Below, one piece after another: positions 13,354 through 50,469 of a stretch of DNA of 55,587 bases. Numbering within the stretch: the stretch's first letter is position 1; each line of letters starts with the position of its first letter. A program made the translations under genes and the position numbers. Below the pieces are notes generated by a model. That model saw only the letters and a program-made list of their open reading frames with translations, had not been told where the DNA came from and did no database searches. Origin of the DNA: Spirochaetales bacterium (lineage in GTDB: Bacteria > Spirochaetota > Spirochaetia > DSM-27196 > SKKC01); the NCBI GenBank assembly GCA_007135605.1, contig SLIN01000105.1, forward strand, positions 1-55,587, written 5' to 3'.

Positions 13354-13626
13354 CTACTCCTGCGGAGGCGCTGATTCGTCACTGCCGCCTGCCGCATTAC
13401 CGAGCTCCGGAAAGAGTTCCAGGACCGGCTTCTCGTCAGGTTCGTCGGGTGTGTTCACGAGTATCTCAATGCGACGCTCAATGTTCGAGAGATCTTTGTC
13501 GAGACCCTTCGCCAGCTTCACACCCTCCTCGAAATATCGCGCTGCGTCCTCGAGTCCGACCTCCGGATCACGAACCTTCTCAACAAGCTCTTCCAGACGC
13601 GATAGTCTCTTCTCGAATGGTTCCAA
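13354..13626 (-). CDS. xseB: Exodeoxyribonuclease VII small subunit
   Basis: This is a 90-aa ORF. FEKRLSRLEELVEKV...LEDAARYFEEGVKLAKGL...IEIL is typical of XseB. It starts 2 nt after the xseA stop. Confidence 0.9.
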   Translation of the reverse strand: MEPFEKRLSRLEELVEKVRDPEVGLEDAARYFEEGVKLAKGLDKDLSNIERRIEILVNTPDEPDEKPVLELFPELGNAAGGSDESAPPQE

Positions 13627-13628
13627 CG

Positions 13629-14858
13629 CTATTCCTCCTCAACCAAGCCTGTGCTCTCGGCGGATACGAGCCCGTCCCGGAATCGGAGACGAATCTCCCG
13701 TTCGTCCACGGCGCGCGCGGCTCTCGTGATCACCTGCTCCCCCCGGCCGTCGAGCACCATCACGTATCCACGCTCGAGCGCGTCGTACGGACTTGCCGCC
13801 TCGACCGCGCCGCGGGCCATTTCCAAGCGATGGCGTGAGCGCAACAATTTCTCCTGCATCGACCTCTGGAGCTGACTCTGTAGTTCGTCGAGCTCCTGGT
13901 ACCGGGGCTGGAGAACGTAGCGAATAGTGCGCTCAAGATCGTCGGGAGAGAATCGGGTGATGGCCAAGCGCGCCCGATCGAGTCTATCGAGGAACGACCG
14001 GACAAGTGTCCGCCCGGTGTTCACCGTGCGAGCGAGTAGGTCCTCGCGACTCGCGCTGACCACCTCCGCAGCAGCAGAGGGCGTCGGAGCCCTGTAATCC
14101 GCGGCGAGATCGGAGAGGGTAGTATCGGTTTCATGACCCACCGCCGAAATCACCGGAGTGTTCGCCTCGGCGATCGCACGAACGACCGACTCCTCTGAGA
14201 AGGCGAGGAGATCCTCGATCGAACCTCCTCCGCGCGTGACGACGATTACGTCGCCGAGCTGAAGCCTATCGGCGCGCCGGAGTTGAGCGGCGATCTGCTC
14301 GGCGGCTTCATTACCCTGAACGGTGCACGGAACGACTACAACATGCACGCCGGCGTTTCTCCTGCCGAGAACGTTCAATATATCACGTATCGCGGCCCCG
14401 GATGGGCTGGTTACGATAGCCACGCGCCGAGGAAGTACAGGCAGTGACTTCTTGCGTTCGGAGTCGAAGAGCCCTTCGGCCGATAGTCGACGTTTGCGTT
14501 CCTCGAGCATCTGAAGAATCCGCCCGATACCTGTCCTCGAGGCACGATCGACGATAATCTGGTAGTTCCCGCGCCGCGCGTATACACCGATAGATCCGTC
14601 GACGGTGATTTGTTCGCCGTCGGAGGGGCGAACCGATGAGCGCTCGAGTTTGTTCCGAAACATCACGCACGATATCGATGACTGATCGTCTTTCAGCGTG
14701 AAATAGAGGTGCCCGCTCGAAGCATAGCGGGCGTTGGATACTTCACCTTCGACCGAGATCGATGGAAAACCGCGTTCAAGCAGTACCTTTATGGCGGAGG
14801 TGATCTCGCTTACACTATACGGTCGTTCGGAGTCGATTCGTTCTTCGGAACGTGTCAT
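13629..14858 (-). CDS. xseA: Exodeoxyribonuclease VII large subunit
   Basis: This is a 409-aa ORF with an N-terminal OB-fold (YSVSEITSAIKVLLERGFPSISVEGEVSNARYASSGHLYFTLKD). It also has the motifs VAIVTSPSGAAIRDIL and ISAVGHETDTTLSDLAAD. Confidence 0.95.
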   Translation of the reverse strand: MTRSEERIDSERPYSVSEITSAIKVLLERGFPSISVEGEVSNARYASSGHLYFTLKDDQSSISCVMFRNKLERSSVRPSDGEQITVDGSIGVYARRGNYQIIVDRASRTGIGRILQMLEERKRRLSAEGLFDSERKKSLPVLPRRVAIVTSPSGAAIRDILNVLGRRNAGVHVVVVPCTVQGNEAAEQIAAQLRRADRLQLGDVIVVTRGGGSIEDLLAFSEESVVRAIAEANTPVISAVGHETDTTLSDLAADYRAPTPSAAAEVVSASREDLLARTVNTGRTLVRSFLDRLDRARLAITRFSPDDLERTIRYVLQPRYQELDELQSQLQRSMQEKLLRSRHRLEMARGAVEAASPYDALERGYVMVLDGRGEQVITRAARAVDEREIRLRFRDGLVSAESTGLVEEE

Positions 14859-14942
14859 TTCGCTAGCAGGAGGCTACCGCATTCATGCGGTTGGTGGAAA
14901 GCAGGTGGAAGAGCTTTCGGGAATGGTCGATAATCACGTAGA

Positions 14943-16460
14943 GTGGATATCGGGATGATTGTAGCACTTGTCGACCGACGGGATCTTTCCGTGTACAGCG
15001 ATCTGGAACTGCCGGGAGGCGGCAGCGCGCGTGAGCGCGTTCTGGCTTTTGTGGGTGGAATTGCCGACCGAGTTGTCTATCTCGGACGTTCCGAGGAAAG
15101 GAATAGCGCGGACGTCGAAGACGAGGTTCGTGACGTAGATCGGGTTGTATATGCTGAAGACGATTCGGCAACGGCTGCACTCAACGCTATCGAATCCGCT
15201 TGCGAGGGAGCCGATGCTCTCATCTACATTCGCGCCGACGAGCCGTTCTACCAGCCCGATCTGACCCGCACGCTTCTGGACGATCATCTGCGATACGGAG
15301 CCCATTACACGTTCAGCGACGGTTATCCGGCCGGAGTAAGCCCGGAGATCGTCGCTCCCGGACTTCCCGCGCTCCTGCGCAACATCGCCCGCGAAGACGA
15401 TCGCGGTACCGGCCCGGGATGGCTATTCTCGGTTCTCGAGCACGACATAAACGCGTTCGATGTGGAAACCCGCCTCGCCCCGCGCGACATGCGCATGCTT
15501 CGGGTCGAGTTGCGGTGTGATACGCGTCTGAATTACACCGTCTGTCGGCGATTTGCCGAGGCAGAGATTGCAGGTCACCGCGAGCTCGTCGACTTCGTCG
15601 ACGAACACAGGGAGATTCTACGGACAGTGCCCGCCTTCGTCGGCGTGCAGATTATCGACGGGTGTCCTCAGGCGTGCTCGTATTGTCCGTTTCCACGCTT
15701 CGGCGGCGATATTCTCACCCAGCGCAACGCGATGCCGGTCGAGCAATTTCGATCGATCATCCGAAAGATCGCCGATTTCAGTCCCGAAGCGGTGGTCGGC
15801 GTCAGCACATGGGGAGAGCCCCTTCTACATCCCGATCTCGCCGGTATCCTCGACGCTATAAGCGCAACCGATTCGCTCAACGGACTTGTCGAAACTTCGG
15901 GAATCGGGATGCCCGCCGAGCATGTCCTCGAGCTGGTCGAACGTAGTAGCGAGCGAATGAAGTGGATCGTCAGTCTGGACTCCAACGACGAAAACGGGTA
16001 CCGCGCATTGCGCGGTGACGGATTCGCCGCCGCCCACGAGGTCGCACACCTTCTCGTGGAACGTATTCCCGAAAGGGTATGGATTCAGGCGGTTCGCATG
16101 CAGAAAAACGAGGAGGCGCTGGAAGGCTTCTATCGATATTGGAAGGCACGCACCGACCACGTCATTATCCAGAAGTATGACCACTTCTCGGGCGAGCTTC
16201 CACAGCGGAAAGTCACCGATCTCTCGCCGTTGACCCGCTTTCCGTGTTGGCAGAACAAACGCGAGCTCTACGTACGTCTCGACGGTACCGTGCCACGCTG
16301 CCGCGAGGATATACGTTCGGAATTCACCCTCGGCAATCTGTTCAGCGATCCGATCGAAACGATCTGGGAGAACGGCGAGCAACTGCACCGGGAACACATC
16401 GCCGGTTCCTATCCGGATATCTGTGGAGAGTGTGATGAGTACTACTCCTTCAACTTCTGA
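14943..16460 (+). CDS. Radical SAM protein with C-terminal SPASM/twitch-like Cys cluster and ~235-aa N-terminal extra domain ('spiro-SPASM'-type)
   Basis: This is a 505-aa ORF starting at GTG 14943 (alternative ATG 14955). The CX3CX2C motif CPQACSYC lies at 15663-15686. A C-terminal Cys cluster reads CWQNK...PRC...ICGEC. I recall a spirochaete-restricted TIGRFAMs family called spiro-SPASM with this layout, but I cannot verify that here. Confidence 0.85.
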   Translation: MDIGMIVALVDRRDLSVYSDLELPGGGSARERVLAFVGGIADRVVYLGRSEERNSADVEDEVRDVDRVVYAEDDSATAALNAIESACEGADALIYIRADEPFYQPDLTRTLLDDHLRYGAHYTFSDGYPAGVSPEIVAPGLPALLRNIAREDDRGTGPGWLFSVLEHDINAFDVETRLAPRDMRMLRVELRCDTRLNYTVCRRFAEAEIAGHRELVDFVDEHREILRTVPAFVGVQIIDGCPQACSYCPFPRFGGDILTQRNAMPVEQFRSIIRKIADFSPEAVVGVSTWGEPLLHPDLAGILDAISATDSLNGLVETSGIGMPAEHVLELVERSSERMKWIVSLDSNDENGYRALRGDGFAAAHEVAHLLVERIPERVWIQAVRMQKNEEALEGFYRYWKARTDHVIIQKYDHFSGELPQRKVTDLSPLTRFPCWQNKRELYVRLDGTVPRCREDIRSEFTLGNLFSDPIETIWENGEQLHREHIAGSYPDICGECDEYYSFNF

Positions 16461-17397
16461 ACGCAGCCGGATACCGTACACCGTTGTCGGAGGAAAAGGC
16501 GGTGACCGGAATCTCAGAGCGCAACGCCCGATAGGCTGCCTCGTACTACATCGCGGCGGTAGCTACCAGCGCTCCTCGCTCTTCACTCACCTCAACGAAT
16601 GCGGAATTGAAGAGATCGTCTCCGTTGAAAACAGTCGCCCTCGCTACGACGTGGAGGAGCTGAGCGACCGTTTCCCGGCGACTCGATTTCTGCTGCTGCA
16701 CAGCGAAATGACGCCCGGCGAACAGATAAACATCGGAATGAACGAGTGTTTCGCCCGGTACGTGTACGTAATCTGGAACGACGTGCAGATTATGCCGATT
16801 CCGGAGCGCATTCGGGCTCGGCTCGAACGGGAACGGGAGCTCTGTTTCGCCCCCGCTATTCGCAACGAAAGAGGCGAAGCCGTTCCGAACATAGTCGCTC
16901 CTGCGTTTTATCGCGGGTTGCTGCGTATCGTGCCGCAGTTACCCGGTCCGGAGCAGACCCGCACGCTCTTTCCATTCGATTACATCGGGCTTTACAACCG
17001 GGATATCTTTCTTCAGCTGCAGGGCTTCGACCGAACGCTGTCGAATCCATACTGGCAGAAGCTCGATTTCGGGTTCAGGGCCTTCATGTGGGGCGAGTCG
17101 ATCTACTGCCTGCCATCGCTGCGGGCTCAGCACCTTTCGCAACTGGCGCCGGATGACACCACTCCCGACGAGAGCTACCGCCGCTTCTATCTGAAGAATC
17201 TTGCCGTTCTCTACCACGGTGACCACGCCCGACTACCGGGGCGTCGGTTTTTCAGCTTTCTGGTGCGTACGAAGGGTGGTTTGCTCTCCTCCTATAAACT
17301 ATTCCACGAAATCAGACGATGGATAAGGAAGAACCGGTATCGCTTTCGGCAGAATGCCCGCAGCGTAACCGACCTATGGGAGTTCGAACGACCATGA
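16423..17397 (+). CDS. GT-A (family 2-like) glycosyltransferase-like protein
   Basis: This is a 324-aa ORF. The only in-frame starts (ATG 16423, ATG 16435) overlap the upstream stop at 16460 by 26-38 nt. YVYVIWNDVQIMP and LQGFDRTL...DFGFRAFMWG resemble GT-A enzymes, so the functional call is weak. Confidence 0.6.
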   Translation: MESVMSTTPSTSERSRIPYTVVGGKGGDRNLRAQRPIGCLVLHRGGSYQRSSLFTHLNECGIEEIVSVENSRPRYDVEELSDRFPATRFLLLHSEMTPGEQINIGMNECFARYVYVIWNDVQIMPIPERIRARLERERELCFAPAIRNERGEAVPNIVAPAFYRGLLRIVPQLPGPEQTRTLFPFDYIGLYNRDIFLQLQGFDRTLSNPYWQKLDFGFRAFMWGESIYCLPSLRAQHLSQLAPDDTTPDESYRRFYLKNLAVLYHGDHARLPGRRFFSFLVRTKGGLLSSYKLFHEIRRWIRKNRYRFRQNARSVTDLWEFERP

Positions 17398-18080
17398 CCG
17401 GAGTATTCCTACAGGCTCGCATCTCGTCGTCCCGTTTGCCCGGCAAAGCGCTGGAGCGCCTTGAGAACCGTACCGTGCTCGAACACTGTATGGCGGCGCT
17501 CGGATACGTTCACGCCGAGCGGCACGTGCTCCTCACCGACACCGAGAGTTCACCGCTGTTCGCGCCACTGGCCGACGCATGGGGATTCGAGCTCTTCGAG
17601 GGCGACCGGGATGACGTCCTTGACCGCTATGCACGTGCAGCCGAACAGTTCGACATCGACACTGTCGTGAGGGCGACCGGTGACAATCCGCTCGTGAGCA
17701 TCACACTTGCCAATCGTATCCTTTCCGAGCACCGCACCGTCGAAAGCGATTATAGCGGATACCTCGGCATGCCGCTCGGAACAGGTGTCGAGGTCGTGAG
17801 CGCACAAGCATTGATGAACGCCGACCGGCACGCTACAGATGCGTACGAGCGCGAGCACGTCTCACCGTATATCTACCGTCGCCCTCTCGAGTTCCGTACA
17901 CACCGACCGATCGTTGAGCCGAACCTACAGAGCGACGAGCGCGTGACGCTGGATACTGTTGAGGATCTCGCACGGCTCAGGACACTTTTCGCACACCTCT
18001 ATCGAGGGCTTCCGATAGAGGTAACCGAGCTGTTGCACGAGCTGCGAGGAATGTACATGCGACACAAGCGGAGTGCATGA
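17394..18080 (+). CDS. SpsF/NeuA-type cytidylyltransferase (CTP_transf_3-like)
   Basis: I moved the start to ATG 17394, which makes an ATGA overlap with the upstream stop. The N-terminus MTGVFLQARISSSRLPGKAL and the 228-aa length fit SpsF-like cytidylyltransferases. Confidence 0.8.
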   Translation: MTGVFLQARISSSRLPGKALERLENRTVLEHCMAALGYVHAERHVLLTDTESSPLFAPLADAWGFELFEGDRDDVLDRYARAAEQFDIDTVVRATGDNPLVSITLANRILSEHRTVESDYSGYLGMPLGTGVEVVSAQALMNADRHATDAYEREHVSPYIYRRPLEFRTHRPIVEPNLQSDERVTLDTVEDLARLRTLFAHLYRGLPIEVTELLHELRGMYMRHKRSA

Positions 18081-19918
18081 GCGACCGGTATCTGGTCATA
18101 CCCGACACGCGTCGCGGTCATGGAACCGGGCACATAGCACGCGCCGCAAGACTCGCAGCATCGCTCGGCGATGAAGCCGATCTACTCATCGATTATCCGT
18201 GGGATGCGAAGTGTCACGAGACCCGAACGATCGTCGAGCTCGCCGAACGGCACGGTGCGAGAATCCGCGGTGACGCGCACGAGCTGCTCCACCAGCACCG
18301 CTCGGCGGAGAAATGGTCACTGGTCATTATCGACGCACAGGAGATGGCGCGTGCCGACCATGCGACGCTGCGCGCGCTCGCTCCCACCGTCGGAGTAGAC
18401 CTCGGTGGTGAGGCCCGATTGTACGCGAGCTACCTGATCGATACCCTGCCGAATCTCTTTGACCATGCGCCGAACGTTTTCGATACGGGATTGAACGAGC
18501 TCCCCTCGCGGGTACGAGGTCCGGAGACGCTCCGCCATGTGGACGAATCGACGCACACAAATGCGCGCATTCTCGTATCGATCGGTGGCGAAGATCCGGC
18601 TTCACTGACACCACGCGTGCTCGATTTACTCGATCGGGCGCAGTCGGTTCCGGAAGAGTCGGTTGATGTCGTTCTCGGGCCCATGTCGGCCGAGAGAGTC
18701 GGAGGCCGGTACCGAACGGTTTCGTCGGTACTGCGGTGCCACCGGCTGAAGGATATCGTCGGTGACTACGATATCGTGATCACGACATTCGGACTAACCG
18801 CCTACGAGGCGCTCGCAGCAGGTTCCACCGTTCTTACCGTTGCTCCCACGCGCTATCATCGACGCCTTGCCGAGCGAGCCGGGCTCTTCTCGCTCGGAGG
18901 ACCGAAACGAATCCATGGAATCGAATGTGCAATCCGCCGTTGGAAGGAAATCTCTCGCACGCAGGAGCGAGTGCGCCCGCGGCGCAGCCGCTCGCTCGTC
19001 GAGCTCGTACGGAGTATCGATGCAAGCGGCGTCGAACCATGCCCCCTACGGGGAGGGTCCGATTTCCCGGCGCTGGTACGGACGGCCGAACGGACGTACC
19101 GCGAGTCGACGTATCCCGGTCTCTACTACCTCGAGCGCTTCGCTCCGATGGAAATCGCGTACACTGAACGCTACTTCTTCGAGGAGTACCGGCATCAATA
19201 CGGGCGGAGTTATCTCGAAGACTTCGCGCAAATTCAGTCGATGTGCGAGCGGAGGCTCGATGAGATCGAACGGCTTCGTTCAACCTCTACCGATGTCGTG
19301 TCCGCCGCCCGGCCCTCGGATGAAGCCGACACCAAACCGATCCTCGTTGATCTCGGTTGCGCGTACGGGCCGATGCTCGCTGCCGCCTCCAAGCGCGGAT
19401 ACGCGGTCAACGGTGTCGAATGGTTTGCGGGTGCGGTCGCATACTGCAACGATACGCTCGGCCTGCCCGCAATCCAGGGTGATGTCTGCGATCGCACGCT
19501 CCCGGACCGGCTTGCTCTTCGCGGCTGTGTCGACGTCGTGACAATGTGGTACGTGATCGAACACGTGCGCGACCTCGATGCACTGCTCGACACCGTGCAG
19601 ACGTTTCTGAAACCGGGTGGCGTGTTCGCTTTCTCGACTCCGAATGCGTCGGGTGCAAGCGCGCGCAAAGACCTCACCGGGTTCCTGAAAGCCGGTCCCG
19701 GCGATCACTGGAGTATCTGGAGCGAACGATGCGTGCACACGATTCTGGCACAGCTCGGCTTCACGAACCCTACGACGGTCGTTACCGGACACCATCCGGA
19801 ACGCTTTGCTCCGAGGTTCGCCCGGACGGCGTTCGGAAACCGCATCGCCCGCCGGTGGAGCATTTTCCGGCGGCTCGGAGATACGTTCGAAGCGTACGCG
19901 CGACGGGGTGAGGCATGA
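18077..19918 (+). CDS. Fusion protein: PseG/SpsG-like GT-B domain + class I SAM-dependent methyltransferase
   Basis: This is a 613-aa ORF with an ATGA overlap at 18077-18080. The N-terminal RRGHGTGHIARAARLA resembles the PseG/SpsG G-x-GH motif, and ILVSIGGEDP...ITTFGLTAYEALAAG indicates a GT-B C-lobe. The C-terminal part has methyltransferase motif I (LVDLGCAYG) and VTMWYVIEHV...LKPGGVFAFSTPN. Confidence 0.75.
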   Translation: MSDRYLVIPDTRRGHGTGHIARAARLAASLGDEADLLIDYPWDAKCHETRTIVELAERHGARIRGDAHELLHQHRSAEKWSLVIIDAQEMARADHATLRALAPTVGVDLGGEARLYASYLIDTLPNLFDHAPNVFDTGLNELPSRVRGPETLRHVDESTHTNARILVSIGGEDPASLTPRVLDLLDRAQSVPEESVDVVLGPMSAERVGGRYRTVSSVLRCHRLKDIVGDYDIVITTFGLTAYEALAAGSTVLTVAPTRYHRRLAERAGLFSLGGPKRIHGIECAIRRWKEISRTQERVRPRRSRSLVELVRSIDASGVEPCPLRGGSDFPALVRTAERTYRESTYPGLYYLERFAPMEIAYTERYFFEEYRHQYGRSYLEDFAQIQSMCERRLDEIERLRSTSTDVVSAARPSDEADTKPILVDLGCAYGPMLAAASKRGYAVNGVEWFAGAVAYCNDTLGLPAIQGDVCDRTLPDRLALRGCVDVVTMWYVIEHVRDLDALLDTVQTFLKPGGVFAFSTPNASGASARKDLTGFLKAGPGDHWSIWSERCVHTILAQLGFTNPTTVVTGHHPERFAPRFARTAFGNRIARRWSIFRRLGDTFEAYARRGEA

Positions 19919-21753
19919 CGACGATTCTTATCTGCGGCGGCGGAACCATGCAGCTACCGGCCATTCGAATCGCGGCGGAGGAGGGGATGCGTGTCATCGT
20001 CGCCGACGGGAACGCCGGGTGCCCGGGACGCGCCGTTGCCGATCGATTCGAGCACGTCGACTTGAACGATCTCGATGGAATGACCGAGTGCGCGCGCCGA
20101 CATTCGGTCGACGGCGTTTTTACCGCCGGCACCGATTTCTCGACTACCGTCGCGTGGGTGGCCGAGACGCTCGGACTGCCCGGAATCGATTACGCGACAG
20201 CGCTTCGCTCGCGGGACAAGGCGCGAATGCGGCGGGTGCTCGGTGATGCGGGGGTGCTCGTGCCGCCGTTCTGCGTGTACGAGAATCTCCGGAAGGTTAC
20301 CGGCGGAAGCGATTCCGCGGGCTCCGATACTCACGGTGAGGTCCCGTTTCCGGCTGTTGTAAAACCGGTTGATAACATGGGCGCGCGGGGAGTTCGGCGG
20401 ATCGGCAGCAGCTCCGAGCTCGAATCCGCACTCCGTGCCGCGACGAAGGAGTCACGGACCGGGAGGGTACTCTGCGAATCGTTTATCCCGGGTCGCGAGT
20501 ACAGCATCGACGCGATCAGCTATGGGGGCTCAGTGTATCCGTGCGGGCTCGCCGACCGGCACATCACGTTTCCACCGTTCTTTGTGGAAATCGGCCATAC
20601 GATTCCCTCCACACTCTCCGCAATCCGGCGAGACTTCCTCGAACGCGGTTTTGCCGCCGCAGTACGGGCTCTCGGAATCGACCCTGGCGCTGCCAAAGGT
20701 GATGTATTTCTCGTACCGCGAGAAAACGCGCCACAATGGCTGGTCTCTCGAGCAGCGACTAGCCGGCTCGAACGACAACGTGACACCGGGAGCTTCTCCC
20801 GGGAAAGCAACGATTTCGTGGTAATCGGCGAGATCGCCGCACGACTCAGCGGCGGATATATGTCCGGCTGGACGTACCCCTTCGCCCGCGGATTCGAGCC
20901 CATCCGTGCCGCGCTCCGAATCGCAGTAGGACACGATCCCGGCCCGATTCGGGAAACGCGGTCCCGCTATGCCGCCGAGCGCGCTATCGTTTCAATTCCC
21001 GGTCAAATCGACCGTATCGACGGTGTAGAAAAGTATGGTCACGAAGCCGACTCCATCTTTCTCACACGTTCAACGGGTCAATCCGTGGCGCTTCCCACGA
21101 GTAACGTGGAGAAATGCGCGAATGTTATCGTAACAGGCGATTCATATATCGAAGCGTGTGACCGGGCCGATCTACTGCGACAGCGTATCCGCGTACGGCT
21201 TGCGACCGCGAACGACGATACCGAACTATTCCTCTTTTCCGCGGAGAACCCGATCCTCACCGCGTGGGACGGAGACCCTGAGCAATCAGGACCGGGACTA
21301 CCGGCTCGGTCACGCGACCTGGAGGTGCGAGCTTCCCGGATGCTCGATGACTGCATGGCTGCGGAAGCTTCTGGTAGCGGCAATACCGTCCGATCCACCG
21401 CCCCGCGTGCTCGAGGGAACGCCCGAGAGAATGCCCGGTCGTCGCTGAAGATACCCGACCCCGTGACGTCGGTTGCCGGCGAGCTTGGACGCGAGTACAC
21501 CGAGACGGGGGCTGACGAGCCCGGCGGGCGCGACATACGAGCGGCGACGCGAGCGCAGTGCATCGAGTATTTGGTCCGCCACAGTGAGAGCGCCCCCGCG
21601 GTTACCGTAAGCACCGACTTCGTCACTGCGGTCACGTTTCTGGCGATTGAGCGAGGCGGTATTCAGGCTCTCGAATATCTGATCGATACTATTAGCGAGG
21701 ACCGAGGATGGCAAAAGCTCTTCGACCGTATACGAGATATTCGACGCTCCTGA
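19915..21753 (+). CDS. ATP-grasp enzyme with ~250-aa C-terminal extension
   Basis: This is a 612-aa ORF with an ATGA overlap at 19915-19918. MTTILICGGGTMQLPAIRIAAEEGMRVIVAD, FPAVVKPVDNMGARGVRRI and ESFIPGREYSIDAISYGG give an ATP-grasp pattern. The C-terminal third has no recognisable motif. Confidence 0.8.
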   Translation: MTTILICGGGTMQLPAIRIAAEEGMRVIVADGNAGCPGRAVADRFEHVDLNDLDGMTECARRHSVDGVFTAGTDFSTTVAWVAETLGLPGIDYATALRSRDKARMRRVLGDAGVLVPPFCVYENLRKVTGGSDSAGSDTHGEVPFPAVVKPVDNMGARGVRRIGSSSELESALRAATKESRTGRVLCESFIPGREYSIDAISYGGSVYPCGLADRHITFPPFFVEIGHTIPSTLSAIRRDFLERGFAAAVRALGIDPGAAKGDVFLVPRENAPQWLVSRAATSRLERQRDTGSFSRESNDFVVIGEIAARLSGGYMSGWTYPFARGFEPIRAALRIAVGHDPGPIRETRSRYAAERAIVSIPGQIDRIDGVEKYGHEADSIFLTRSTGQSVALPTSNVEKCANVIVTGDSYIEACDRADLLRQRIRVRLATANDDTELFLFSAENPILTAWDGDPEQSGPGLPARSRDLEVRASRMLDDCMAAEASGSGNTVRSTAPRARGNARENARSSLKIPDPVTSVAGELGREYTETGADEPGGRDIRAATRAQCIEYLVRHSESAPAVTVSTDFVTAVTFLAIERGGIQALEYLIDTISEDRGWQKLFDRIRDIRRS

Positions 21754-22766
21754 TCGTTTTCGTCGCGGCCATGCTTGCTCCCGGCCCGGTACACCCCGGC
21801 GAGATCTCGCTCAGAGAGGTCGCATCCGGGCTGAATGCGGAGATTCTCTACGACCCGTTTCTCGAGCTCGGCCGTATCCAGTACGGTGGGTATGCCGTGC
21901 GCTTCGCCGTCGGCAGCGACGAGATGCGTACCGACGACGGGACGGTCCTGAGCGTAACGCCACCGACCTCGAACGACGGTTCGGTGTACATCGACGAGAA
22001 CACCGCAACACAACTGAAGGCGATCTGGCGCCCGACGGCTACCGATCGCGATGAGCCGTTCGTGTCCGCGATCGTCATCGACCCCGGACATGGCGGTCGC
22101 GACCCGGGAACGATCGGCAGGCACGTGATCGACGGCGAGGAGCTCGTGTTGCGTGAGAAGGATATCGTGCTTGACGTATCGCTCCACTTGCGCGACCTTC
22201 TGCGGGAGTCGTTCGACGACCGGCGGATAATTCTCACTCGCGAGGACGACCGCTATCTGCCGCTCGACACTCGTACCGATATGGCGAACGACTTACCGCT
22301 CGGTGAAAACGAGTACGTGGTGTACGTCTCGGTGCACGCGAATGCCTCGCTGAATACCCGTGCAACCGGCTTCGAGGCGTGGTTCATTCCGCCGGAGCAA
22401 CGAAGAACGCTTATCGACCCGGAGGACCTGGACTCCGACCGTCGGCGGATACACGCCATACTCAACTCGATGCGCGAGGAAGAGGTCTCGGTGCACAGTG
22501 CCATGCTCGGAAACGAGCTTCTCAGTGGGCTCGAACAGACGGTCGGAGCCCGCTCTCCGAATCGCGGACTGAAGCAGGAAAACTGGGCGGTTGTACGAAA
22601 TGCACTCATGCCGAGTGTGCTTGTTGAGCTCGGCTTCGTCACGAATCCGGAGGAGGCACAACTGCTCTCCGACCCCGAATACTTGCACAAGCTCGCGGTC
22701 GGCCTCTATACTGGTATCCGTCAATTTGTTGACGTCTTTGAGACCTCGAATTCGGACGGAACATGA
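21708..22766 (+). CDS. N-acetylmuramoyl-L-alanine amidase (Amidase_3, AmiA/B/C type), secreted
   Basis: This is a 352-aa ORF with the signal peptide STLLIVFVAAMLAPGPVHP. Amidase_3 motifs are AIVIDPGHGGRDPGTIG, YVSVHANAS, GFEAWF and VLVELGFVTNPEE. The start overlaps the ATP-grasp gene by 46 nt. Confidence 0.9.
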   Translation: MAKALRPYTRYSTLLIVFVAAMLAPGPVHPGEISLREVASGLNAEILYDPFLELGRIQYGGYAVRFAVGSDEMRTDDGTVLSVTPPTSNDGSVYIDENTATQLKAIWRPTATDRDEPFVSAIVIDPGHGGRDPGTIGRHVIDGEELVLREKDIVLDVSLHLRDLLRESFDDRRIILTREDDRYLPLDTRTDMANDLPLGENEYVVYVSVHANASLNTRATGFEAWFIPPEQRRTLIDPEDLDSDRRRIHAILNSMREEEVSVHSAMLGNELLSGLEQTVGARSPNRGLKQENWAVVRNALMPSVLVELGFVTNPEEAQLLSDPEYLHKLAVGLYTGIRQFVDVFETSNSDGT

Positions 22767-23242
22767 ATTTTACCCGTTTTGACACGAAAGCGGTTGCAGT
22801 GGTTGCGCTCGCATCTTCGCTGGCGGTATCTATCGCCTTCTATTTCTTTATGTCTCCGAACCGGGTAGAGCGGGTACTCTTTTTCCCCGGCTCTATCGAG
22901 AGGGAGCTCGCCGGCGAGCCCCGGCTCGTTCCCCGATCCGACGGCTTGGAGTCGAGCGTACGCACGGTGGTTCGCGAATTGATGTACGGGCCGGCGAGAA
23001 TCGACCGCTCTCGCGTGGTGTCACGTAATACACGTGCGGCCAGCGTAATCGTTCGAGGATCCACGGCGTATATAGAACTCTCCACCGATATCCTCCACGT
23101 CGAGGAGGAGGCGCTGCCGCTTTCCCTCGAGGAGAGTCTCACGGCGATCGAACACACTATTCGCTTCAACTTTCGCTCCATCGAGCGGGTAATTATCACC
23201 ATCGGCGGTGAAATGCTGCGCGCACCCGCTGCAAACATATAG
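22763..23242 (+). CDS. GerMN-domain protein (membrane-anchored)
   Basis: This is a 159-aa ORF with an ATGA overlap with the amidase stop. It has an N-terminal hydrophobic anchor (AVAVVALASSLAVSIAFYFF). The VRTVVRELMYGP...VIVRGSTAYIELS pattern resembles GerMN domains, which are often encoded next to amidases. Confidence 0.65.
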   Translation: MNFTRFDTKAVAVVALASSLAVSIAFYFFMSPNRVERVLFFPGSIERELAGEPRLVPRSDGLESSVRTVVRELMYGPARIDRSRVVSRNTRAASVIVRGSTAYIELSTDILHVEEEALPLSLEESLTAIEHTIRFNFRSIERVIITIGGEMLRAPAANI

Positions 23243-23303
23243 CGGGTTCATCCGGGAGACCGCTCAAGGTTTCGAAGAGTGCGTCACTCGAACGGGCATC
23301 GGT

Positions 23304-23331
23304 TTGACAAAACGTTCCCGCTCCATATACT
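23304..23331 (+). promoter_or_regulatory. sigma70-type promoter candidate for flaA
   Basis: TTGACA (23304-23309), 16 nt, then TATACT (23326-23331). It lies about 50 nt upstream of ATG 23383, with an AAGGAG SD at 23371-23376. Confidence 0.5.
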
Positions 23332-23382
23332 TACAGATGCGTATTCTGGGTACGAAACCACGGAGGGATTAAGGAGCAACGA

Positions 23383-24327
23383 ATGAAAAGGATTTTCATT
23401 CTAATCACCGGAATGCTTCTTCTGGGCGCTATAGGTTGGGCTGAGGAGTCGGTAATGATCGACTTCGGCCAGCTCATTCCTGATTCGGATGAATATCCGG
23501 GCCAGCACGAGCAGACGATCATCGATTTCAGCGATGTGCCGATAGCGCAGCTTCCGGAAGAAGACAGAGAGCAAATGCGAACATCGCTCGCGATCGAGAA
23601 TTGGGAAGTGCTGCTGGCATCAAGCTCCCGGAGAATGGACAATCTCTCGAACAGCTACGTGCGAATGGCGGGAGTTCGAGAGGATGCACGTCAGTTCGCC
23701 GGAGAAGCAGCCATGGGCGTTCGAGTTCGCTTTCCGGAAAGCGCATACAACAGCTGGGCGCTCGTCAGGCCGCCGTTCGAAATACCGGGTTTCGATCCGG
23801 AGCGACGCTTCGATGGCTACGGCGTGATCCGGAACACCGGTTCGATTCGTCAAATTCGCGTTAACGTGTACGGTCTGAACTTCCCGCACCGCCTGAGCAT
23901 ACTCCTCATGGACGAGAACAACCGCGTGCAGGAGATCATGCTCGGCGACCTCGAGTTCGACGGCTGGAACACGCTCGTATGGGACAATCCCAATTACATC
24001 GAGGACGTGCGTAACCGCGAGCTTCGCGTCATGCCGCGCTATCCAGCAAGTGAACCGTTGCAGAAATTCGACGGGTTCCGCATCTATCGCGACAAGGAGG
24101 CGATAGGCGGCGACTTCGTCACCTACGTCAAAGACGTAACGCTGGTATATGATCTCGCCGAGCTCGACGAAGAGCGCGATATCGATCACGAGGAGCTTTG
24201 GGGGATTCTCAGTGAGCGCGAACGGCAGCGCCGACAGGCCGAGCTTTCCCGCCTCGGACGGATTCAGTCGTTGCGATTCATCGAAGAGCGACGTATGGAC
24301 GACACGCTCAACGGCCCGCTCGACTAG
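23383..24327 (+). CDS. flaA: Flagellar filament outer-layer (sheath) protein FlaA
   Basis: This is a 314-aa ORF with a signal peptide. The segments ESVMIDFGQL, SLAIENWEVLL, GVRVRFPE, PPFEIPGF, RFDGYGVIRNTGSIRQIRVNVYGLNFPH, FDGWNTLVWDNPNYIEDVRNRELR and PRYPASEP are colinear with Treponema FlaA as I remember it. Confidence 0.9.
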   Translation: MKRIFILITGMLLLGAIGWAEESVMIDFGQLIPDSDEYPGQHEQTIIDFSDVPIAQLPEEDREQMRTSLAIENWEVLLASSSRRMDNLSNSYVRMAGVREDARQFAGEAAMGVRVRFPESAYNSWALVRPPFEIPGFDPERRFDGYGVIRNTGSIRQIRVNVYGLNFPHRLSILLMDENNRVQEIMLGDLEFDGWNTLVWDNPNYIEDVRNRELRVMPRYPASEPLQKFDGFRIYRDKEAIGGDFVTYVKDVTLVYDLAELDEERDIDHEELWGILSERERQRRQAELSRLGRIQSLRFIEERRMDDTLNGPLD

Positions 24328-24380
24328 CGGCTCCGGCTCACGATACGTCCATCATCGTTCGATATAGAGTGAACTCGGAA

Positions 24381-24412
24381 CACTCCGCCCTGCCGACCGG
24401 CAGGGCGGAGTG
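24381..24412 (+). terminator. Perfect 14-bp stem / 4-nt loop hairpin downstream of flaA (terminator-like, no U-tract)
   Basis: The sequence is CACTCCGCCCTGCC-gacc-GGCAGGGCGGAGTG, 54 nt after the flaA stop. It is followed by cgttatct rather than a clean T-run. Confidence 0.45.
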
Positions 24413-24640
24413 CGTTATCTGCCCGTACTGCCCCTTGTAAACGGCGGACCTTGCAAGCGTCGGGAAACCCAGTCCCGGTTTCGGGAACCGCACGGATCCC
24501 GAAACCATCCGATCAAGGCACAAAGGATAGGACTTCCAAACGGGTAACCGTGTCCCGAGCGGGAAGCGTACATCCGCTACGGGGGCATCACCTGCGGAGC
24601 ACTACGTTTGAGAGAAATGCGCTTGCTTTGGCGTTCGGTC

Positions 24641-25513
24641 CTACTGTCGATTGCCCGTGATTCGCAAGCCGACTGTCGTACGGAATAGAAAGACATCGCT
24701 GACGTCGGTGCCCGCAAGACCGCGACGACCGAACGTGAACAGATTCGTGTCCAGGCCGATATCCGCCGCGACGTCCGGAGATAGTTGTACTCCGATCGTG
24801 GTACCGAGCACGATTGAACCGAGGGCGTCAACCTCCGAGCTGTCGCCTTCCAACAGCCGGACCTCGCGATTGTGATAGGCGAGGTCGAGCACGACGGTAT
24901 ACGGAACACCGTCTTTGAACACGTCGGCTGATATGCCGTAGACATTCCGGCTGCGATGGCGTGCACCGCCTTCGGTCACCTCCTCGAAACGGCGCGACTC
25001 GACTCTCGCCTCCACACGGGCGTTCGGAATCCGGGCACCCAATACTCCGGCCAGCTGACCACTCCGATAGTCACCTGGATCGTTCAGCGATGCGAGCGTC
25101 TCGCGCGCTTCGCCGCCGATATACACACGATCGAAGAGATCGACCGTCAACATGCCGGCGACACCGGCCCGTACCGGTGCGGGCCCGGTATTCAACAATC
25201 CGAATGTCGGTCCGATCGTAACCTGAAGCGGCCCTTCGGAGACGCGCAGCTTCGAAAGCACGGTATTCCCGAGAATAGCATCACGCTCGAACCCGACATC
25301 AACATGAAGCGACTCGCTCAACCTGTTCGACATCCACGCCGCCACCTCGATCGACGTAGCGTCCGGAACCGGGGCACCGTCTTCGGGCACCCGGTCACCG
25401 GAGAAGTCGAGATTGCCGACCCCGAGCTGTACAGAGAATTCACTCGCCGATACGCTCGCCGGCACAAAAGCCGGAAGAAACACAAACACCAATAGCAATG
25501 GATATCTCATCAT
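24641..25513 (-). CDS. Secreted beta-strand-rich protein, putative outer-membrane protein
   Basis: This is a 290-aa ORF with the signal peptide MMRYPLLLVFVFLPAFVPASVSASE. It shows an alternating hydrophobic pattern with Gly/Asp turns. I found no named motif. Confidence 0.7.
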   Translation of the reverse strand: MMRYPLLLVFVFLPAFVPASVSASEFSVQLGVGNLDFSGDRVPEDGAPVPDATSIEVAAWMSNRLSESLHVDVGFERDAILGNTVLSKLRVSEGPLQVTIGPTFGLLNTGPAPVRAGVAGMLTVDLFDRVYIGGEARETLASLNDPGDYRSGQLAGVLGARIPNARVEARVESRRFEEVTEGGARHRSRNVYGISADVFKDGVPYTVVLDLAYHNREVRLLEGDSSEVDALGSIVLGTTIGVQLSPDVAADIGLDTNLFTFGRRGLAGTDVSDVFLFRTTVGLRITGNRQ

Positions 25514-25518
25514 AAGCC

Positions 25519-26628
25519 TCAGAACTCCGTACGTACTCCGATAAAGCCCTCAAACAGCTCGGTCGGATCGTACGGTATCAGTTTTGCCTGTGTTCGTATT
25601 TCCCAAGTGATCCCCCCGGAGCTCAGTTGCAGGAACGGCGTCGTCGAGAACGAAAACTGTTCGTCTGCGTCAGGTCGTACGGCCAGACGAGTCTCTACGC
25701 CGGCGGCAGCATCGCCGTTCCGGATGTCGCCCAACTCCAACCTGAGATTGGTGTCGATCGAGCCGCCCTGATTGGTAGCCACCTGGTCGTACACGTCCGG
25801 CTGCCAGAAAAAGCTTAACGTCGTTCCAAGGATGCCGAGCCGCACCCGTGGCTCAAACAGGAAAAAGAAGTCGCTCACACCGATCTCATCGCCGGTGGCC
25901 GGTTCAATCGCCGGAAGTGCCACTTGCAGAAGCAATGAGTCACCCTGGGGGGATCGAAGGTTCGCGAGCACTCCCGCGCGATATCGACCGACAGCAGCGA
26001 GGGGATACGTCGCTCCTACGAACGCTTCGAGCTGAACCGCATCGAAGTTCAGCATCGCCTGAATATCCGACGAAAAAACCCCGGGGTCGAAACGATTGTC
26101 CTGATATGTGTATGCGGAAAACTCCACCCGATTCCATTGGTCGTTTGTCGACACAGCGAGTCCGGTTCCCGAAACGCCGTACATTCCCTCGAACCTCGGA
26201 CCGTCCGGAAAGTACATGAACCCACGGAAACGTGTCGATACCGGGTCCGTTCCGAATCTTCGCGGGAACTCGTCGCCCGTGCCGAGACGAGCGAACTCCC
26301 CGACGAAGTAGCTCACCGACAGCTCGGTCCCTCCAAGCTCACGCATTTCTACACTCGCGCTGCGAATACGTGGAATGTTCGAAATGGTCGGGTCGTCAAA
26401 CGTCTCCGACTGAATTCCGAGCGTCACGCTCGGCCTGGCCAAGAAACCGCTGCGCAACGTCAGGCCGAGATCGCCGAACGTTTGCAGCCCGAGCGTGCCA
26501 TCGTCGACCCGATTGACACGAGTAACGAACTCGAACGGCCGTATTTCCACATCTGCGGCGGGCAACGACACGCCGGCAGCAATAAACAACACTCCAAACA
26601 GCAATACAGTTTGAGATATACGTCTCAT
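25519..26628 (-). CDS. Secreted beta-strand-rich protein, putative outer-membrane beta-barrel
   Basis: This is a 369-aa ORF with the signal peptide MRRISQTVLLFGVLFIAAGVSLPAAD. The C-terminus ...FIGVRTEF ends in Phe, as in BAM substrates. A 5-nt gap separates it from the next gene. Confidence 0.7.
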   Translation of the reverse strand: MRRISQTVLLFGVLFIAAGVSLPAADVEIRPFEFVTRVNRVDDGTLGLQTFGDLGLTLRSGFLARPSVTLGIQSETFDDPTISNIPRIRSASVEMRELGGTELSVSYFVGEFARLGTGDEFPRRFGTDPVSTRFRGFMYFPDGPRFEGMYGVSGTGLAVSTNDQWNRVEFSAYTYQDNRFDPGVFSSDIQAMLNFDAVQLEAFVGATYPLAAVGRYRAGVLANLRSPQGDSLLLQVALPAIEPATGDEIGVSDFFFLFEPRVRLGILGTTLSFFWQPDVYDQVATNQGGSIDTNLRLELGDIRNGDAAAGVETRLAVRPDADEQFSFSTTPFLQLSSGGITWEIRTQAKLIPYDPTELFEGFIGVRTEF

Positions 26629-29217: not shown

Positions 29218-30642
29218 ATGAGCAGCGAAGATACATCCACCAGATCGTTCGGCCGAGTCCCCGGAGCGGCGATCGAAGGCACCATGATCTCTCGAGACTC
29301 CGAACGTGGCGTCGAGGATCACACCGAAACTATCGATTACAAGATGGTAACGTTCTCGCTCGGCGGGAAAGATTACGGTATCGACATAATGAACGTGAAG
29401 GAGATTGCCAAGTTTCATACCTTCACCTATGTTCCCAATGCGCCTCCATTCGTGCGAGGTGTATACAATCTTCGAGGCGATATAATCTCGATTATCGACC
29501 TGAGATTGATGTTCAATCTCCCGGCCGAACAGAAGGACGACAATCAGCCGGAGGACGGGCTCATAATCCGGATGGAAAACCATATGCTCGGCGTAATCGT
29601 CGACAACGTCGCACGCGTCGTCGGTATTTCCCGTCGCGCTATCCAGCCGCCTCATCCGATCTTCGCCGACATCAATTTGAAGTACATCAGCGGGGTAGTC
29701 GAGCACGAGAGCAGACTCTACATCATACTCGATGTTGAACGGATATTCCACCGCGACGGTGGCGTATCGGAGCGCAGTGACCCCGGCCGCACCGAACCCG
29801 ACACCCGACCGATGGGCCAATTCGGCGGAGAGTTTCCGGCACATGCAACAGAACCCCAGCCGGTGACACACTCCCGGGCGAGCGGAGACGAGCGGCAGGT
29901 CGACTTCGAATTCGTTCGCGAAACACTTGCAACCTTCGCAGGTTTTCATGCGAGTGAAGTGAACCGTCAGTGGCTACGTCGACGTTTCGAGGATTGGAGA
30001 AGAGAACGCGAATCCGTGAACAAGGATGTACAACTGGCATCAACCGAGGACGCCGAGATGTTCCTCGAGCCGTTTTACTCGCCGTCGACGAACGCCTTCT
30101 GGAGCGAGCAGTACGTACGTCGATTCGCCTCGATCCTGCCGGCTGCCGAGCATCCCTCGGCTTTCACGGCGTGGAATATCGGCTGTGGAAAGGGATTTGA
30201 AACGTACAGCCTCGCACTCACGCTGCGGGACGCGCTACCGGAAAGTCGGCTCAAGATCTGGGCAAATGATAACGATTTGCTTGGTGTTTCCACGGCCCCG
30301 AACCTCGTCTTTTCTGCCGGCGTCGTTCCGGAGTTATTCAGACGCTACGTCGTGGCCGGGAGGAATGGCTATAGCTTCAGTCACGAGATACGCGATCTGA
30401 TCGTTTTCGAGTATCATGATGTAACGAATCCGAGCGCGGTGCCCGAGATGGATCTCATCGTTGTACGGGATGTTCTTTCGTTCATGCCGGTAGACGATCA
30501 ACAAGCCGTCATCGAGAGAATCGGCGAAAAAGCAAAACCAGGAGCTATCGCCGTGCTCGGTGAAAACGAGCGTATGCCGGTTCCCGAGATCTGGGAGCCG
30601 ATCGAGCAGGCGCCCAGCGGAGTCTACCGAAAAGTAGAGTGA
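29218..30642 (+). CDS. CheW domain fused to a CheR-like methyltransferase-fold domain
   Basis: This is a 474-aa ORF. The N-terminal CheW domain reads KMVTFSLGGKDYGIDIMNVKEI...VRGVYNLRGDIISIIDL...GVIVDNVARVV. The C-terminal ~270 aa are colinear with CheR (STNAFWSEQY, AWNIGCGKGFETYSLA, KIWANDND, DLIVVRDVLSFM). Confidence 0.9.
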   Translation: MSSEDTSTRSFGRVPGAAIEGTMISRDSERGVEDHTETIDYKMVTFSLGGKDYGIDIMNVKEIAKFHTFTYVPNAPPFVRGVYNLRGDIISIIDLRLMFNLPAEQKDDNQPEDGLIIRMENHMLGVIVDNVARVVGISRRAIQPPHPIFADINLKYISGVVEHESRLYIILDVERIFHRDGGVSERSDPGRTEPDTRPMGQFGGEFPAHATEPQPVTHSRASGDERQVDFEFVRETLATFAGFHASEVNRQWLRRRFEDWRRERESVNKDVQLASTEDAEMFLEPFYSPSTNAFWSEQYVRRFASILPAAEHPSAFTAWNIGCGKGFETYSLALTLRDALPESRLKIWANDNDLLGVSTAPNLVFSAGVVPELFRRYVVAGRNGYSFSHEIRDLIVFEYHDVTNPSAVPEMDLIVVRDVLSFMPVDDQQAVIERIGEKAKPGAIAVLGENERMPVPEIWEPIEQAPSGVYRKVE

Positions 30643-31646: not shown

Positions 31647-31720
31647 GGGCGCTTAGCTCAGTTGGTTAGAGTGCTTGCTTGACATGCAAGAGGTCACTGG
31701 TTCAAATCCAGTAGCGCCCA
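31647..31720 (+). tRNA. tRNA-Val (anticodon GAC)
   Basis: Folded by hand: acceptor GGGCGCT/AGCGCCC, anticodon stem CTTGC/GCAAG with loop TTGACAT, T-arm ACTGG-TTCAAAT-CCAGT, discriminator A. No CCA is encoded. Confidence 0.9.
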
Positions 31721-31854
31721 ACGCCCGTAAACGGCGATTCCGACTTCGACGCCGCGAGAAGAAGTCGCGGCGCACAAAAGGAACGCACGCAGTCGGTATA
31801 CAAGCGCCTTCAGAGCAATCCGGGTTATCGGCAGACTCAAACGGGAGAGGCAGC

Positions 31855-50310: not shown

Positions 50311-50334
50311 AGACTCCGGACCCCTCAAAACGCC

Positions 50335-50469
50335 CAGGAGCTGGTCGGACTTCACTGCGAAATTGAATACCAGGCCTACTCTCACTCACCGGCATGCGTC
50401 GTGACGGCTGGAAGAATGCATCCGGCCGTCCCAATATTCAATTCTGCCCATATGCCCAACGAACTCCTG
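50335..50469 (+). repeat. 135-bp imperfect-palindrome repeat element, copy 1 (more degenerate)
   Basis: The element runs CAGGAGCTGGTCGGACTTCACTGCGAAATTGAATACC...CCAATATTCAATTCTGCCCATATGCCCAACGAACTCCTG. By hand alignment its flanks are about 80-85% identical to 51514-51648. Its termini are inverted repeats (CAGGAG / CTCCTG, AATTGAATA / TATTCAATT). Confidence 0.75.

Follow-up and report, generated by a model that had tools for sequence, protein, structure and literature searches.

A conserved unit of seven overlapping genes upstream of flaA in spirochaetes, with candidate genes for tailoring and transfer of a flagellin nonulosonate

The window analysed here is contig SLIN01000105.1 of a Spirochaetales bacterium (assembly GCA_007135605.1), 55,587 nucleotides (nt) at its full length, in which seven consecutive genes on the + strand (14955-23242, here designated g1 to g7) overlap at each junction and are followed, 140 nt further 3', by the flagellar gene flaA. 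In the best reading the seven genes are one transcription unit of two functional modules, g1-g5 being candidate genes for the tailoring and transfer of a sugar acid and g6-g7 encoding a cell-wall amidase and its likely partner. The seven overlapping genes, the motifs quoted from their translations and the position of flaA had been proposed in an initial annotation made from the letters alone, and all were found again in the open reading frame (ORF) listing, the junctions and the translations. Four junctions are of the ATGA type (17394, 18077, 19915 and 22763), and g5 overlaps g6 by 46 nt (21708/21753). Two of the start codons first chosen are probably wrong: g1 most likely starts at ATG 14955, in agreement with the public call of 501 amino acids (aa), rather than at GTG 14943, the start of the longest ORF, and g2 most likely at ATG 16435, with a GGAG lying 6 nt before it, rather than at GTG 16423. 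With the g1 stop at 16458-16460, the g1/g2 overlap is then 26 nt, where the longest ORF would give 38 nt. In public gene calls, both for an identical 87-kb contig and for GCA_003558715.1, the seven products measure 501, 320, 228, 613, 612, 352 and 159 aa. By the hydrophobicity of the translations, g1-g5 have no transmembrane, signal or other hydrophobic segment, and g6, g7 and FlaA have one. No internal promoter or terminator rises above the level of shuffled sequence; of the sites scored, only the flaA promoter does. An Rfam scan of the window finds two tRNAs only, both distant from the locus.

The arrangement recurs in related species. The best 80 loci from a scan of one genome per species, laid out by tblastn with the window proteins, cover the Spirochaetaceae, Treponema, Rectinemataceae, Breznakiella, Sediminispirochaeta, Oceanispirochaeta and an Olavius symbiont, and the order xseA (- strand), g1-g7, flaA is present in about 50 of the 80, including nearly every locus of sufficient length: a strong conservation of the neighbourhood across the Spirochaetia, and a recurrence of gene order and coupling far beyond chance. 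The genes g1 and g2 are never apart, and their 26-nt overlap is identical in 75 of 75 loci, where 16435-16460 encodes in two frames the invariant C-terminus of g1, CDEYY(S/T)FNF, and the conserved N-terminus of g2, MST(T/I)PST; the aspartate codon of CDEYY is always GAT, so that the ATG of g2, lying within GAT-GAG, is preserved. The median spacing in related loci is -4 nt for each of g2/g3, g3/g4, g4/g5 and g5/g6 and +3 nt for g6/g7; g7 and flaA are separated by a gap in all loci (median 108 nt). A distant, AT-rich, frequently assembled lineage (loci L081-L083) has the same seven genes with a g7-flaA gap of only 10 nt and with cheA and cheW-cheR directly after (15965-20960 there); to judge by this spacing, its seven genes and flaA-che look like one long operon.

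Departures from the common layout separate the modules and pair some of their genes. The third and fourth genes are fused into a single protein in L034, L052, L071 and P0301. In two unrelated lineages (L023 and L063), g4 and g5 are jointly missing and g1-g3 lie directly upstream of the amidase gene, a joint loss that hints at paired action of g4 and g5. In L057, g1-g4 are followed by genes for HtrA, DtxR, NFACT and a MurD-like protein, with no amidase or flaA close by; g1-g2 of L079 are followed by ClpP and ATP-binding cassette (ABC) transporter genes, and g1-g4 of L043 by a methyl-accepting chemotaxis protein gene and a sugar ABC system, and neither has the trio of amidase, GerMN protein and FlaA genes nearby. 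Conversely, Treponema pallidum has the trio without g1-g5 at that place, TP0248 (a lipoprotein) and TP0249 (FlaA1) following TP0245 and TP0246, which encode unrelated P-loop and von Willebrand factor A proteins. The four cases, together with the citation of the Borrelia amidase operon for cell division, argue for two separable modules; of the proposed seven-gene operon linking sugar enzymes to an amidase, the physical and transcriptional link stands, and a chemical link would be conjecture. As clues to function, the extra genes of the atypical loci were uninformative, consisting of an AAA ATPase gene inserted in L061 and, in L043, L057 and L079, the genes just named.

The first gene (g1, 14955..16460, +, 501 aa) encodes a spiro-SPASM protein, a full-length member of TIGR04321 (497.5 bits, cut-off 250; residues 57-505 aligned with positions 57-510 of the profile) that also matches the radical S-adenosylmethionine (SAM) family PF04055 (43.8 bits, cut-off 29.5) and the SPASM family PF13186 (32.5 bits). 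The radical-SAM motif CxxxCxxC, which reads CPQACSYC at residues 241-248 (15663..15686), is intact in the window copy. The N-terminal 225 or so residues are a paralogue of the g3 family over the whole domain length (hhalign 97.5%, E 7.7e-12, 187 columns) without R9, S12, R14 and K18, nucleotide-binding residues that are invariant in g3; because these are lost, the domain is probably a binding domain, inactive as a cytidylyltransferase. The closest solved structure to the radical-SAM part is BtrN (4m7t, E 4.9e-12, in two stretches), the "twitch" radical-SAM dehydrogenase of butirosin biosynthesis, whose substrate is a carbohydrate-like alcohol. A SPASM domain, with two auxiliary 4Fe-4S clusters, has seven cysteines in the pattern CX9-15GX4C...CX2CX5CX3C...C. 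The C-terminal region of g1 (16245..16433) has four, C435, C453, C494 and C497 in 505-aa numbering, which are the sole conserved ones there; the cysteine cluster reported initially is thus present, but its pattern, CX17C...CX2C, is by sequence twitch-like and not the full SPASM set, and it resembles the single auxiliary cluster site of BtrN. Differences from BtrN are the additional N-terminal domain and the loss of radical-SAM cysteines from many orthologues.

That loss is extensive. Of 78 g1 orthologues, about 60 have the CxxxCxxC motif intact, 17 have lost all three cysteines and L076 has lost two of the three (affected loci: L001, L002, L018, L019, L027, L031, L032, L041, L044, L046, L048, L051, L053, L057, L060, L064, L068, L076 and L081, the last also without the GGE motif), yet every one of these orthologues retains the full-length protein. 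The four C-terminal cysteines are conserved in 99-100% of the 78, those without radical-SAM cysteines included, and taken together with the motifs of the N-terminal domain in 97-100%. Most of the losses are in the window's own clade, in metagenome-assembled genomes (MAGs) of saline, soda-lake and marine origin. Since the replacement residues differ between sub-branches, the alignment suggests that the cysteines were lost repeatedly, and the radical-SAM step is apparently dispensable in about 20% of species. The losses do not track changes in catalytic residues of g2, g4 or g5; only the zinc-ribbon cysteines of g4 co-vary with them, within the window's clade. The name of TIGR04321 suggests a SPASM domain, yet its members conserve four C-terminal cysteines and about one-fifth of them cannot bind the radical-SAM cluster. 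Three protein homology searches were made, with the best 120 matches listed for each, and among the matches listed the g1 family is limited to spirochaetes. No paper on "spiro-SPASM" or TIGR04321 was found; the family is so far no more than a name. The MAG GCA_003558715.1 (PWPD01000466.1) matches the window over 1400 nt except for an A in place of C at 16225, which changes S428 (TCA) to TAA and splits g1 into 423 + 76 aa; a variant in the population or an error of assembly would explain the difference.

The window copy of the second gene (g2, 16435..17397, +, 320 aa) has no match in Pfam or NCBIfam, but 24 of 40 relatives match PF00535 weakly and some carry the NCBI name GT2, for glycosyltransferase (GT) family 2. 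Its family comprises about 190 clusters at 50% identity, with E values up to 1e-30. An AlphaFold2 (AF2) model with a mean predicted local distance difference test (pLDDT) score of 87 led Foldseek to GT-A enzymes, the top match being ppGalNAc-T2 (E 4.8e-13, TM-score about 0.6, a resemblance at the level of fold only), and the best structural matches are peptide O-glycosyltransferases, namely polypeptide GalNAc-transferases. The position of the DxD motif is occupied by N-D-V in the window and by x-D-x in the family (N/S/D-D-M/T/L). On the basis of this model, g2 reads as a divergent, GT2-like GT-A glycosyltransferase, apparently without the DxD motif.

The third gene (g3, 17394..18080, +, 228 aa) encodes a cytidylyltransferase of the SpsF/PseF type, matching PF02348 (CTP_transf_3) at 92.4 bits (cut-off 22.6), with Q7, R9, S12, R14 and K18 invariant in the family, among them the R/S/R/K residues that mark CTP_transf_3. 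Its best solved relative is 6oew, an unassigned cytidylyltransferase (E 2.5e-38), followed by KdsB structures at about 1e-10, but it falls below the KdsB equivalog cut-offs (39 against 155-281 bits). To our knowledge, the characterized substrates of CTP_transf_3 enzymes are all 2-keto-3-deoxy sugar acids, and none is a cell-wall precursor.

The fourth gene (g4, 18077..19918, +, 613 aa) encodes a PseG-like domain of GT-B fold (residues 1 to about 300), the position of a zinc ribbon (about 320-350) and a class I SAM methyltransferase (415-564; Methyltransf_23, 69.5 bits), and its AF2 model has a pLDDT of 91.7. A fold search with the full-length model was swamped by the methyltransferase domain, and the N-terminal domain was judged instead by a profile search of Protein Data Bank sequences, in which the best match was PseG of Campylobacter jejuni (3hbm, E 1.3e-4). 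The motif GxGH19xxR22 aligns with GFGHIKR of 3hbm, and G16, G18, H19 and R22 are invariant in 32-42 sequences, as expected of PseG; the catalytic histidine of the C. jejuni enzyme is His17. Relatives of g4 carry the JGI label "SpsG". TcaB9 and KijD1, which are nucleotide-sugar C-methyltransferases, can be aligned with the methyltransferase and ribbon together across some 300 columns. The ribbon (19040-19120, residues 322-347) has four cysteines in most species but has degenerated in the window (C,R,S,P), in L001 and L002 (E,G,E,S) and also in L053 and L041, all of the clade that is prone to loss of the g1 cysteines.

The fifth gene (g5, 19915..21753, +, 612 aa) encodes a predicted ATP-grasp ligase of the L-amino-acid-ligase (LAL) type that is extended at its C-terminus by about 180 aa. 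It matches LAL_C2 (PF18603, 35.6 bits, cut-off 29.4), PF13535 (29.6 bits, cut-off 27) and PF02655, and its closest solved relatives are 4dim (1.1e-41), the LAL BL00235 (3vot, 3.3e-38) and BacD (7e-21). All nine residues checked (R106, K150, R158, E188, E195, K261, D263, E306 and R310) are unchanged in every locus. The profile searches thus bear out the families guessed from the letters alone, spiro-SPASM, SpsF-type cytidylyltransferase, PseG-like domain with methyltransferase, ATP-grasp and Amidase_3. TIGR04321, PF04055, PF02348 and the ATP-grasp models PF18603 and PF13535 score above cut-off and PF13186 gives a match; the PseG TIGRFAM stays below its cut-off.

The second module begins with g6 (21708..22766, +, 352 aa), a secreted N-acetylmuramoyl-L-alanine amidase that matches Amidase_3 (PF01520) at 149 bits in two stretches separated by an insertion and has a hydrophobic, signal-like N-terminus. 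With AmiA, AmiB and AmiC of Escherichia coli it shares the Amidase_3 domain, the signal peptide and the insertion in the catalytic domain, but it scores only 76-86 bits against their equivalogs (cut-offs 400-700). The next gene, g7 (22763..23242, +, 159 aa), encodes a membrane-anchored GerMN (Germane) protein (PF10646, 34 bits) with an N-terminal transmembrane segment (Kyte-Doolittle score 2.24), and is likely the partner of the amidase. GerMN domains are found in all spirochaete genomes, often in lipoproteins, are fused to Amidase_3 in Halothermothrix and have been proposed to bind peptidoglycan. A LytM-type activator is absent, and the GerMN protein may act in its stead. The pair corresponds to bb0666/bb0667 of Borrelia and to TP0247/TP0248 of T. 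pallidum, and the order of amidase, small GerMN envelope protein, flaA and cheA is the same. TP0247 is reportedly called the amidase in the original T. pallidum genome annotation. The Borrelia genes bb0665-bb0667, upstream of flaA-cheA2, are cited as an operon that promotes cell division, with bb0666 encoding the sole amidase. A Borrelia amidase mutant reportedly grows as unseparated chains. The best reading of g6-g7 is a periplasmic cell-separation amidase with its GerMN partner.

The seven-gene unit is bounded downstream by a sigma-70-type promoter, TTGACA-16-TATACT (23304..23331, +, 11/12 matches), the only strong site of this kind in 13500-25000, which precedes flaA (23383..24327, +; PF04620, 241.8 bits), the gene of the flagellar filament outer-layer (sheath) protein, itself outside the coupled unit. 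FlaA has a Sec signal peptide, and its gene keeps this position in 49 loci. A promoter element with at least 10/12 matches is present in 42 of the 49, mostly 32-60 nt (typically 40-55) upstream of the start. Because this promoter is conserved, the adjacency of flaA is better regarded as synteny than as part of a single operon, except in L081-L083, and the best reading of these sequences is that flaA is transcribed mainly from its own promoter. Immediate adjacency to flaA, as first claimed, therefore holds in the sense of a conserved neighbour and not of a member of the coupled unit.

The module g1-g5 may be a variant of the flagellin-type nonulosonate glycosylation systems; two of its components lack a characterized counterpart. 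The general claim, that it constitutes a cytoplasmic pathway for the tailoring and transfer of a sugar acid activated with cytidine monophosphate (CMP), is probable. The narrower claim, that it supplies the tailoring, CMP-activation and transfer steps for the O-glycan of FlaB flagellin, is read from sequence and is put forward tentatively. In Treponema denticola, the one species whose glycan has been solved, FlaB1-3 carry on Ser/Thr a glycan of 450.2 Da, composed of a pseudaminic-type nonulosonic acid and a 2-methoxy-4,5,6-trihydroxyhexanoyl group, which is essential for filament assembly; in the accessible papers on this glycan, neither the acyl extension nor the transfer to FlaB is assigned a gene. 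In the mechanism proposed, soluble cytoplasmic enzymes would tailor an acidic sugar of the ulosonic or nonulosonic type, activate it with CMP and transfer it, most likely to form the O-glycan that the core flagellins, FlaB, would receive in the cytoplasm, ahead of their export by the flagellar apparatus. The ligase g5 would join a carboxylic acid of the 3-deoxy-hexonate type to an amino group of the sugar, in place of the acetylation by PseH; the methyltransferase of g4 would form the 2-methoxy group, and its PseG-like domain would free the acylated hexose from uridine diphosphate (UDP). A synthase encoded elsewhere would make the nonulosonate, which g3 would convert to the CMP-sugar; g1 would hold the same sugar through its inactive cytidylyltransferase-like domain and, where its radical-SAM cysteines are intact, may perform a BtrN-like oxidation or deoxygenation; and g2 would transfer the sugar. 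PseG and PseF likewise flank the synthase step in the pseudaminic acid pathway. The acyl group of the T. denticola glycan is reportedly on N7. The radical-SAM and ATP-grasp steps, which the initial annotation left unexplained, thus acquire candidate roles, the former in a step with which some species evidently dispense.

Each feature of the FlaB glycan can be matched with an enzyme: the Pse-type nonulosonate with the g4 N-terminal domain and g3, the amide-linked acid with g5, the O-methyl group with the g4 methyltransferase, the deoxy carbon with the radical-SAM domain of g1 and the transfer to protein with g2. In about 49 loci the cluster lies next to flaA-cheA. Two proteins expressed by T. 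pallidum, the PseB-like TP0077 and the nonulosonate synthase TP0562, have their genes at a distance from flaA, which indicates that the core pathway lies apart from flaA in a related spirochaete. If the target is flagellar, the FlaB core is likelier than FlaA, because g1-g5, as soluble enzymes, are accompanied by neither a flippase nor a lipid-carrier gene, and FlaA has a Sec signal. Of the two targets named at the outset for a sugar-derived modification, peptidoglycan and the periplasmic flagellum, the flagellum is thus favoured.

Several observations weigh against this assignment. The one-to-one mapping of enzymes to glycan features is a post-hoc fit. As had been observed at the outset for the synthase NeuB/PseI and for PseB and PseC, none of PseB, PseC, PseH and PseI/NeuB was found in the 55.6-kb window by comparison with Pfam of every ORF in the locus and of 27 ORFs with 200 aa or more, a scan that did not extend to short ORFs such as cheX/cheY at 30.6-31.6 kb; nor did any of the ORFs scanned match the flagellin transferase families Maf (DUF115) and FlmG. 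The match of g4 to the PseG equivalog TIGR03590 is 34.6 bits over residues 161-255, against a cut-off of 153.55. No flagellin nonulosonate transferase is known to be a GT2 enzyme. The T. pallidum amidase gene has no g1-g5 upstream, and the close coupling between g5 and the amidase gene, with overlap in 29 of 48 loci, would fit a role in the cell wall too.

A stronger form of the FlaB proposal is more doubtful: that g1-g5 are the missing genes for the N-acyl (2-methoxy-3-deoxy-hexonoyl) extension of the spirochaete flagellin nonulosonate, with two new enzyme types and a radical step lost repeatedly in saline and soda-lake lineages. The first new type would be a flagellin nonulosonate transferase of GT-A fold without DxD, unrelated to Maf and FlmG, and the second a fusion of pseudo-cytidylyltransferase and radical-SAM domains acting on the CMP-sugar or a precursor; the repeated loss of the radical step would then yield a natural series of glycan variants.

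The rival that survives best, though rather unlikely, is that g1-g5 make a CMP-activated sugar acid for some other acceptor, such as another protein glycosylated in the cytoplasm, a glycolipid or lipo-oligosaccharide, or a soluble metabolite, the proximity of the amidase gene and flaA being inherited synteny. None of the genes of the cluster encodes a component specific to an acceptor, flaA is served by a promoter of its own, and g1-g5 or parts of the module lie apart from flaA in several loci; moreover, xseA/xseB are likewise fixed in the flank, so that synteny seems to be frozen across the entire region. A surface polysaccharide is nevertheless disfavoured, since the five enzymes are soluble and come with no flippase, polymerase or lipid-carrier transferase, and the joining of g7 and flaA in one unit in L081-L083 and the chemical fit to the FlaB glycan are better accommodated by a flagellar target.

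It is improbable that g1-g5 act at the cytoplasmic face of the membrane to modify peptidoglycan or a wall precursor carried on a lipid, for example by adding an amino acid or sugar acid to UDP-MurNAc-peptide or lipid II, with the amidase and GerMN protein acting on the modified wall. Such a role would fit the overlap or abutment of g5 with the amidase gene in most loci (median -4 nt) and the proposed binding of peptidoglycan by GerMN proteins. ATP-grasp enzymes include D-Ala-D-Ala ligases, but g5 is far nearer to L-amino-acid ligases (1e-38 to 1e-41) than to Ddl (1e-10 to 1e-15); the PseG fold is MurG-like and g4 has a GT28 match (E 0.002-4.5e-4), but its N-terminal motif is of the PseG type (GxGHxxR). 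The substrates familiar for CTP_transf_3 are also unlike wall precursors, and the two modules occur without each other, as described for T. pallidum and for L057, L079 and L043. That g1 is a peptide-modifying radical-SAM/SPASM maturase and that the cluster makes a modified peptide is scarcely credible: the PF13186 match and weak matches to ScmF, WgkB, PqqE and SkfB would suit such a maturase of ribosomally synthesized peptides, but this reading was rejected on the four conserved C-terminal cysteines in place of the seven-cysteine SPASM set, the closeness to the sugar-type dehydrogenase BtrN, the lack of a short precursor gene between the tightly overlapping genes, the loss of radical-SAM cysteines from proteins that are retained and the paralogy of the N-terminal domain with cytidylyltransferases.

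Among known systems, the FlaB proposal finds its nearest parallel in the pseudaminic acid pathway of Campylobacter and Helicobacter, whose product decorates flagellin. PseG of C. jejuni is the best solved relative of the g4 N-terminal domain, with the GxGH motif aligned; PseF, NeuA and KdsB are in the same Pfam family as g3; and g3 and g4 are adjacent and sometimes fused, in the manner of PseF-PseG. HP0326 of Helicobacter pylori is a comparable PseF-PseG fusion. In contrast to that pathway, g3 and g4 score far below the equivalog cut-offs, no PseB, PseC, PseH or PseI was found among the window ORFs scanned, g4 has an added methyltransferase, and an ATP-grasp ligase, a GT-A transferase and the radical-SAM fusion are further enzymes of the cluster without a place in the textbook route. 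A similar division of labour is found in the type A flagellin glycan locus of Clostridioides difficile (CD0240-CD0244), the likeness being one of function and not demonstrably of family. There a GT2 enzyme attaches a sugar to flagellin, the appendage is activated with cytidine triphosphate (CTP) by a nucleotidyltransferase and moved by a GT-B-like enzyme, and a SAM methyltransferase acts last; the genes adjoin the flagellin gene; CD0242 is described as resembling GDP-mannose pyrophosphorylase and choline-phosphate cytidylyltransferase, and CD0244 as TagF-like. Unlike g1-g5, the C. difficile system has no ATP-grasp or radical-SAM enzyme, and its appendage is phospho-N-methyl-threonine.

The gene families are already catalogued and the amidase part is known from Borrelia; no paper on this gene cluster was found. 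A five-gene module beside flaA in dozens of spirochaete species offers concrete candidates for the acyl extension of the FlaB glycan and its transfer. TIGR04321 is a named but unstudied family that combines an apparently dead cytidylyltransferase domain with a BtrN-like radical-SAM architecture, and the apparently repeated loss of its radical-SAM cysteines can teach something about the evolution of enzymes. Were the cell wall the target, the cluster would bear on how spirochaetes coordinate wall hydrolysis with their periplasmic flagella.

Other features of the window include two convergent genes between flaA and cheA (24641-25513 and 25519-26628, both - strand), which encode signal-peptide proteins of 290 and 369 aa without a Pfam family and have weak homologues at the same place in many related loci. 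Directly after cheA, a gene at 29218-30642 (+) encodes a 474-aa fusion of CheW with a CheR methyltransferase, and the same fusion is found in L081-L083. Two translationally abutting genes at 504-7999 (+) encode proteins of 996 and 1501 aa, the second with BNR repeats and a SpoIIE-type phosphatase, and two overlapping genes at 47477-50385 (-) encode proteins of the Beta-lactamase family (PF00144) of 463 and 506 aa. The longest ORF for a CDP-alcohol phosphatidyltransferase (31675-32577) begins within a tRNA (31647-31720; Rfam, 73.6 bits), which indicates that the true start of the phosphatidyltransferase gene lies further downstream.

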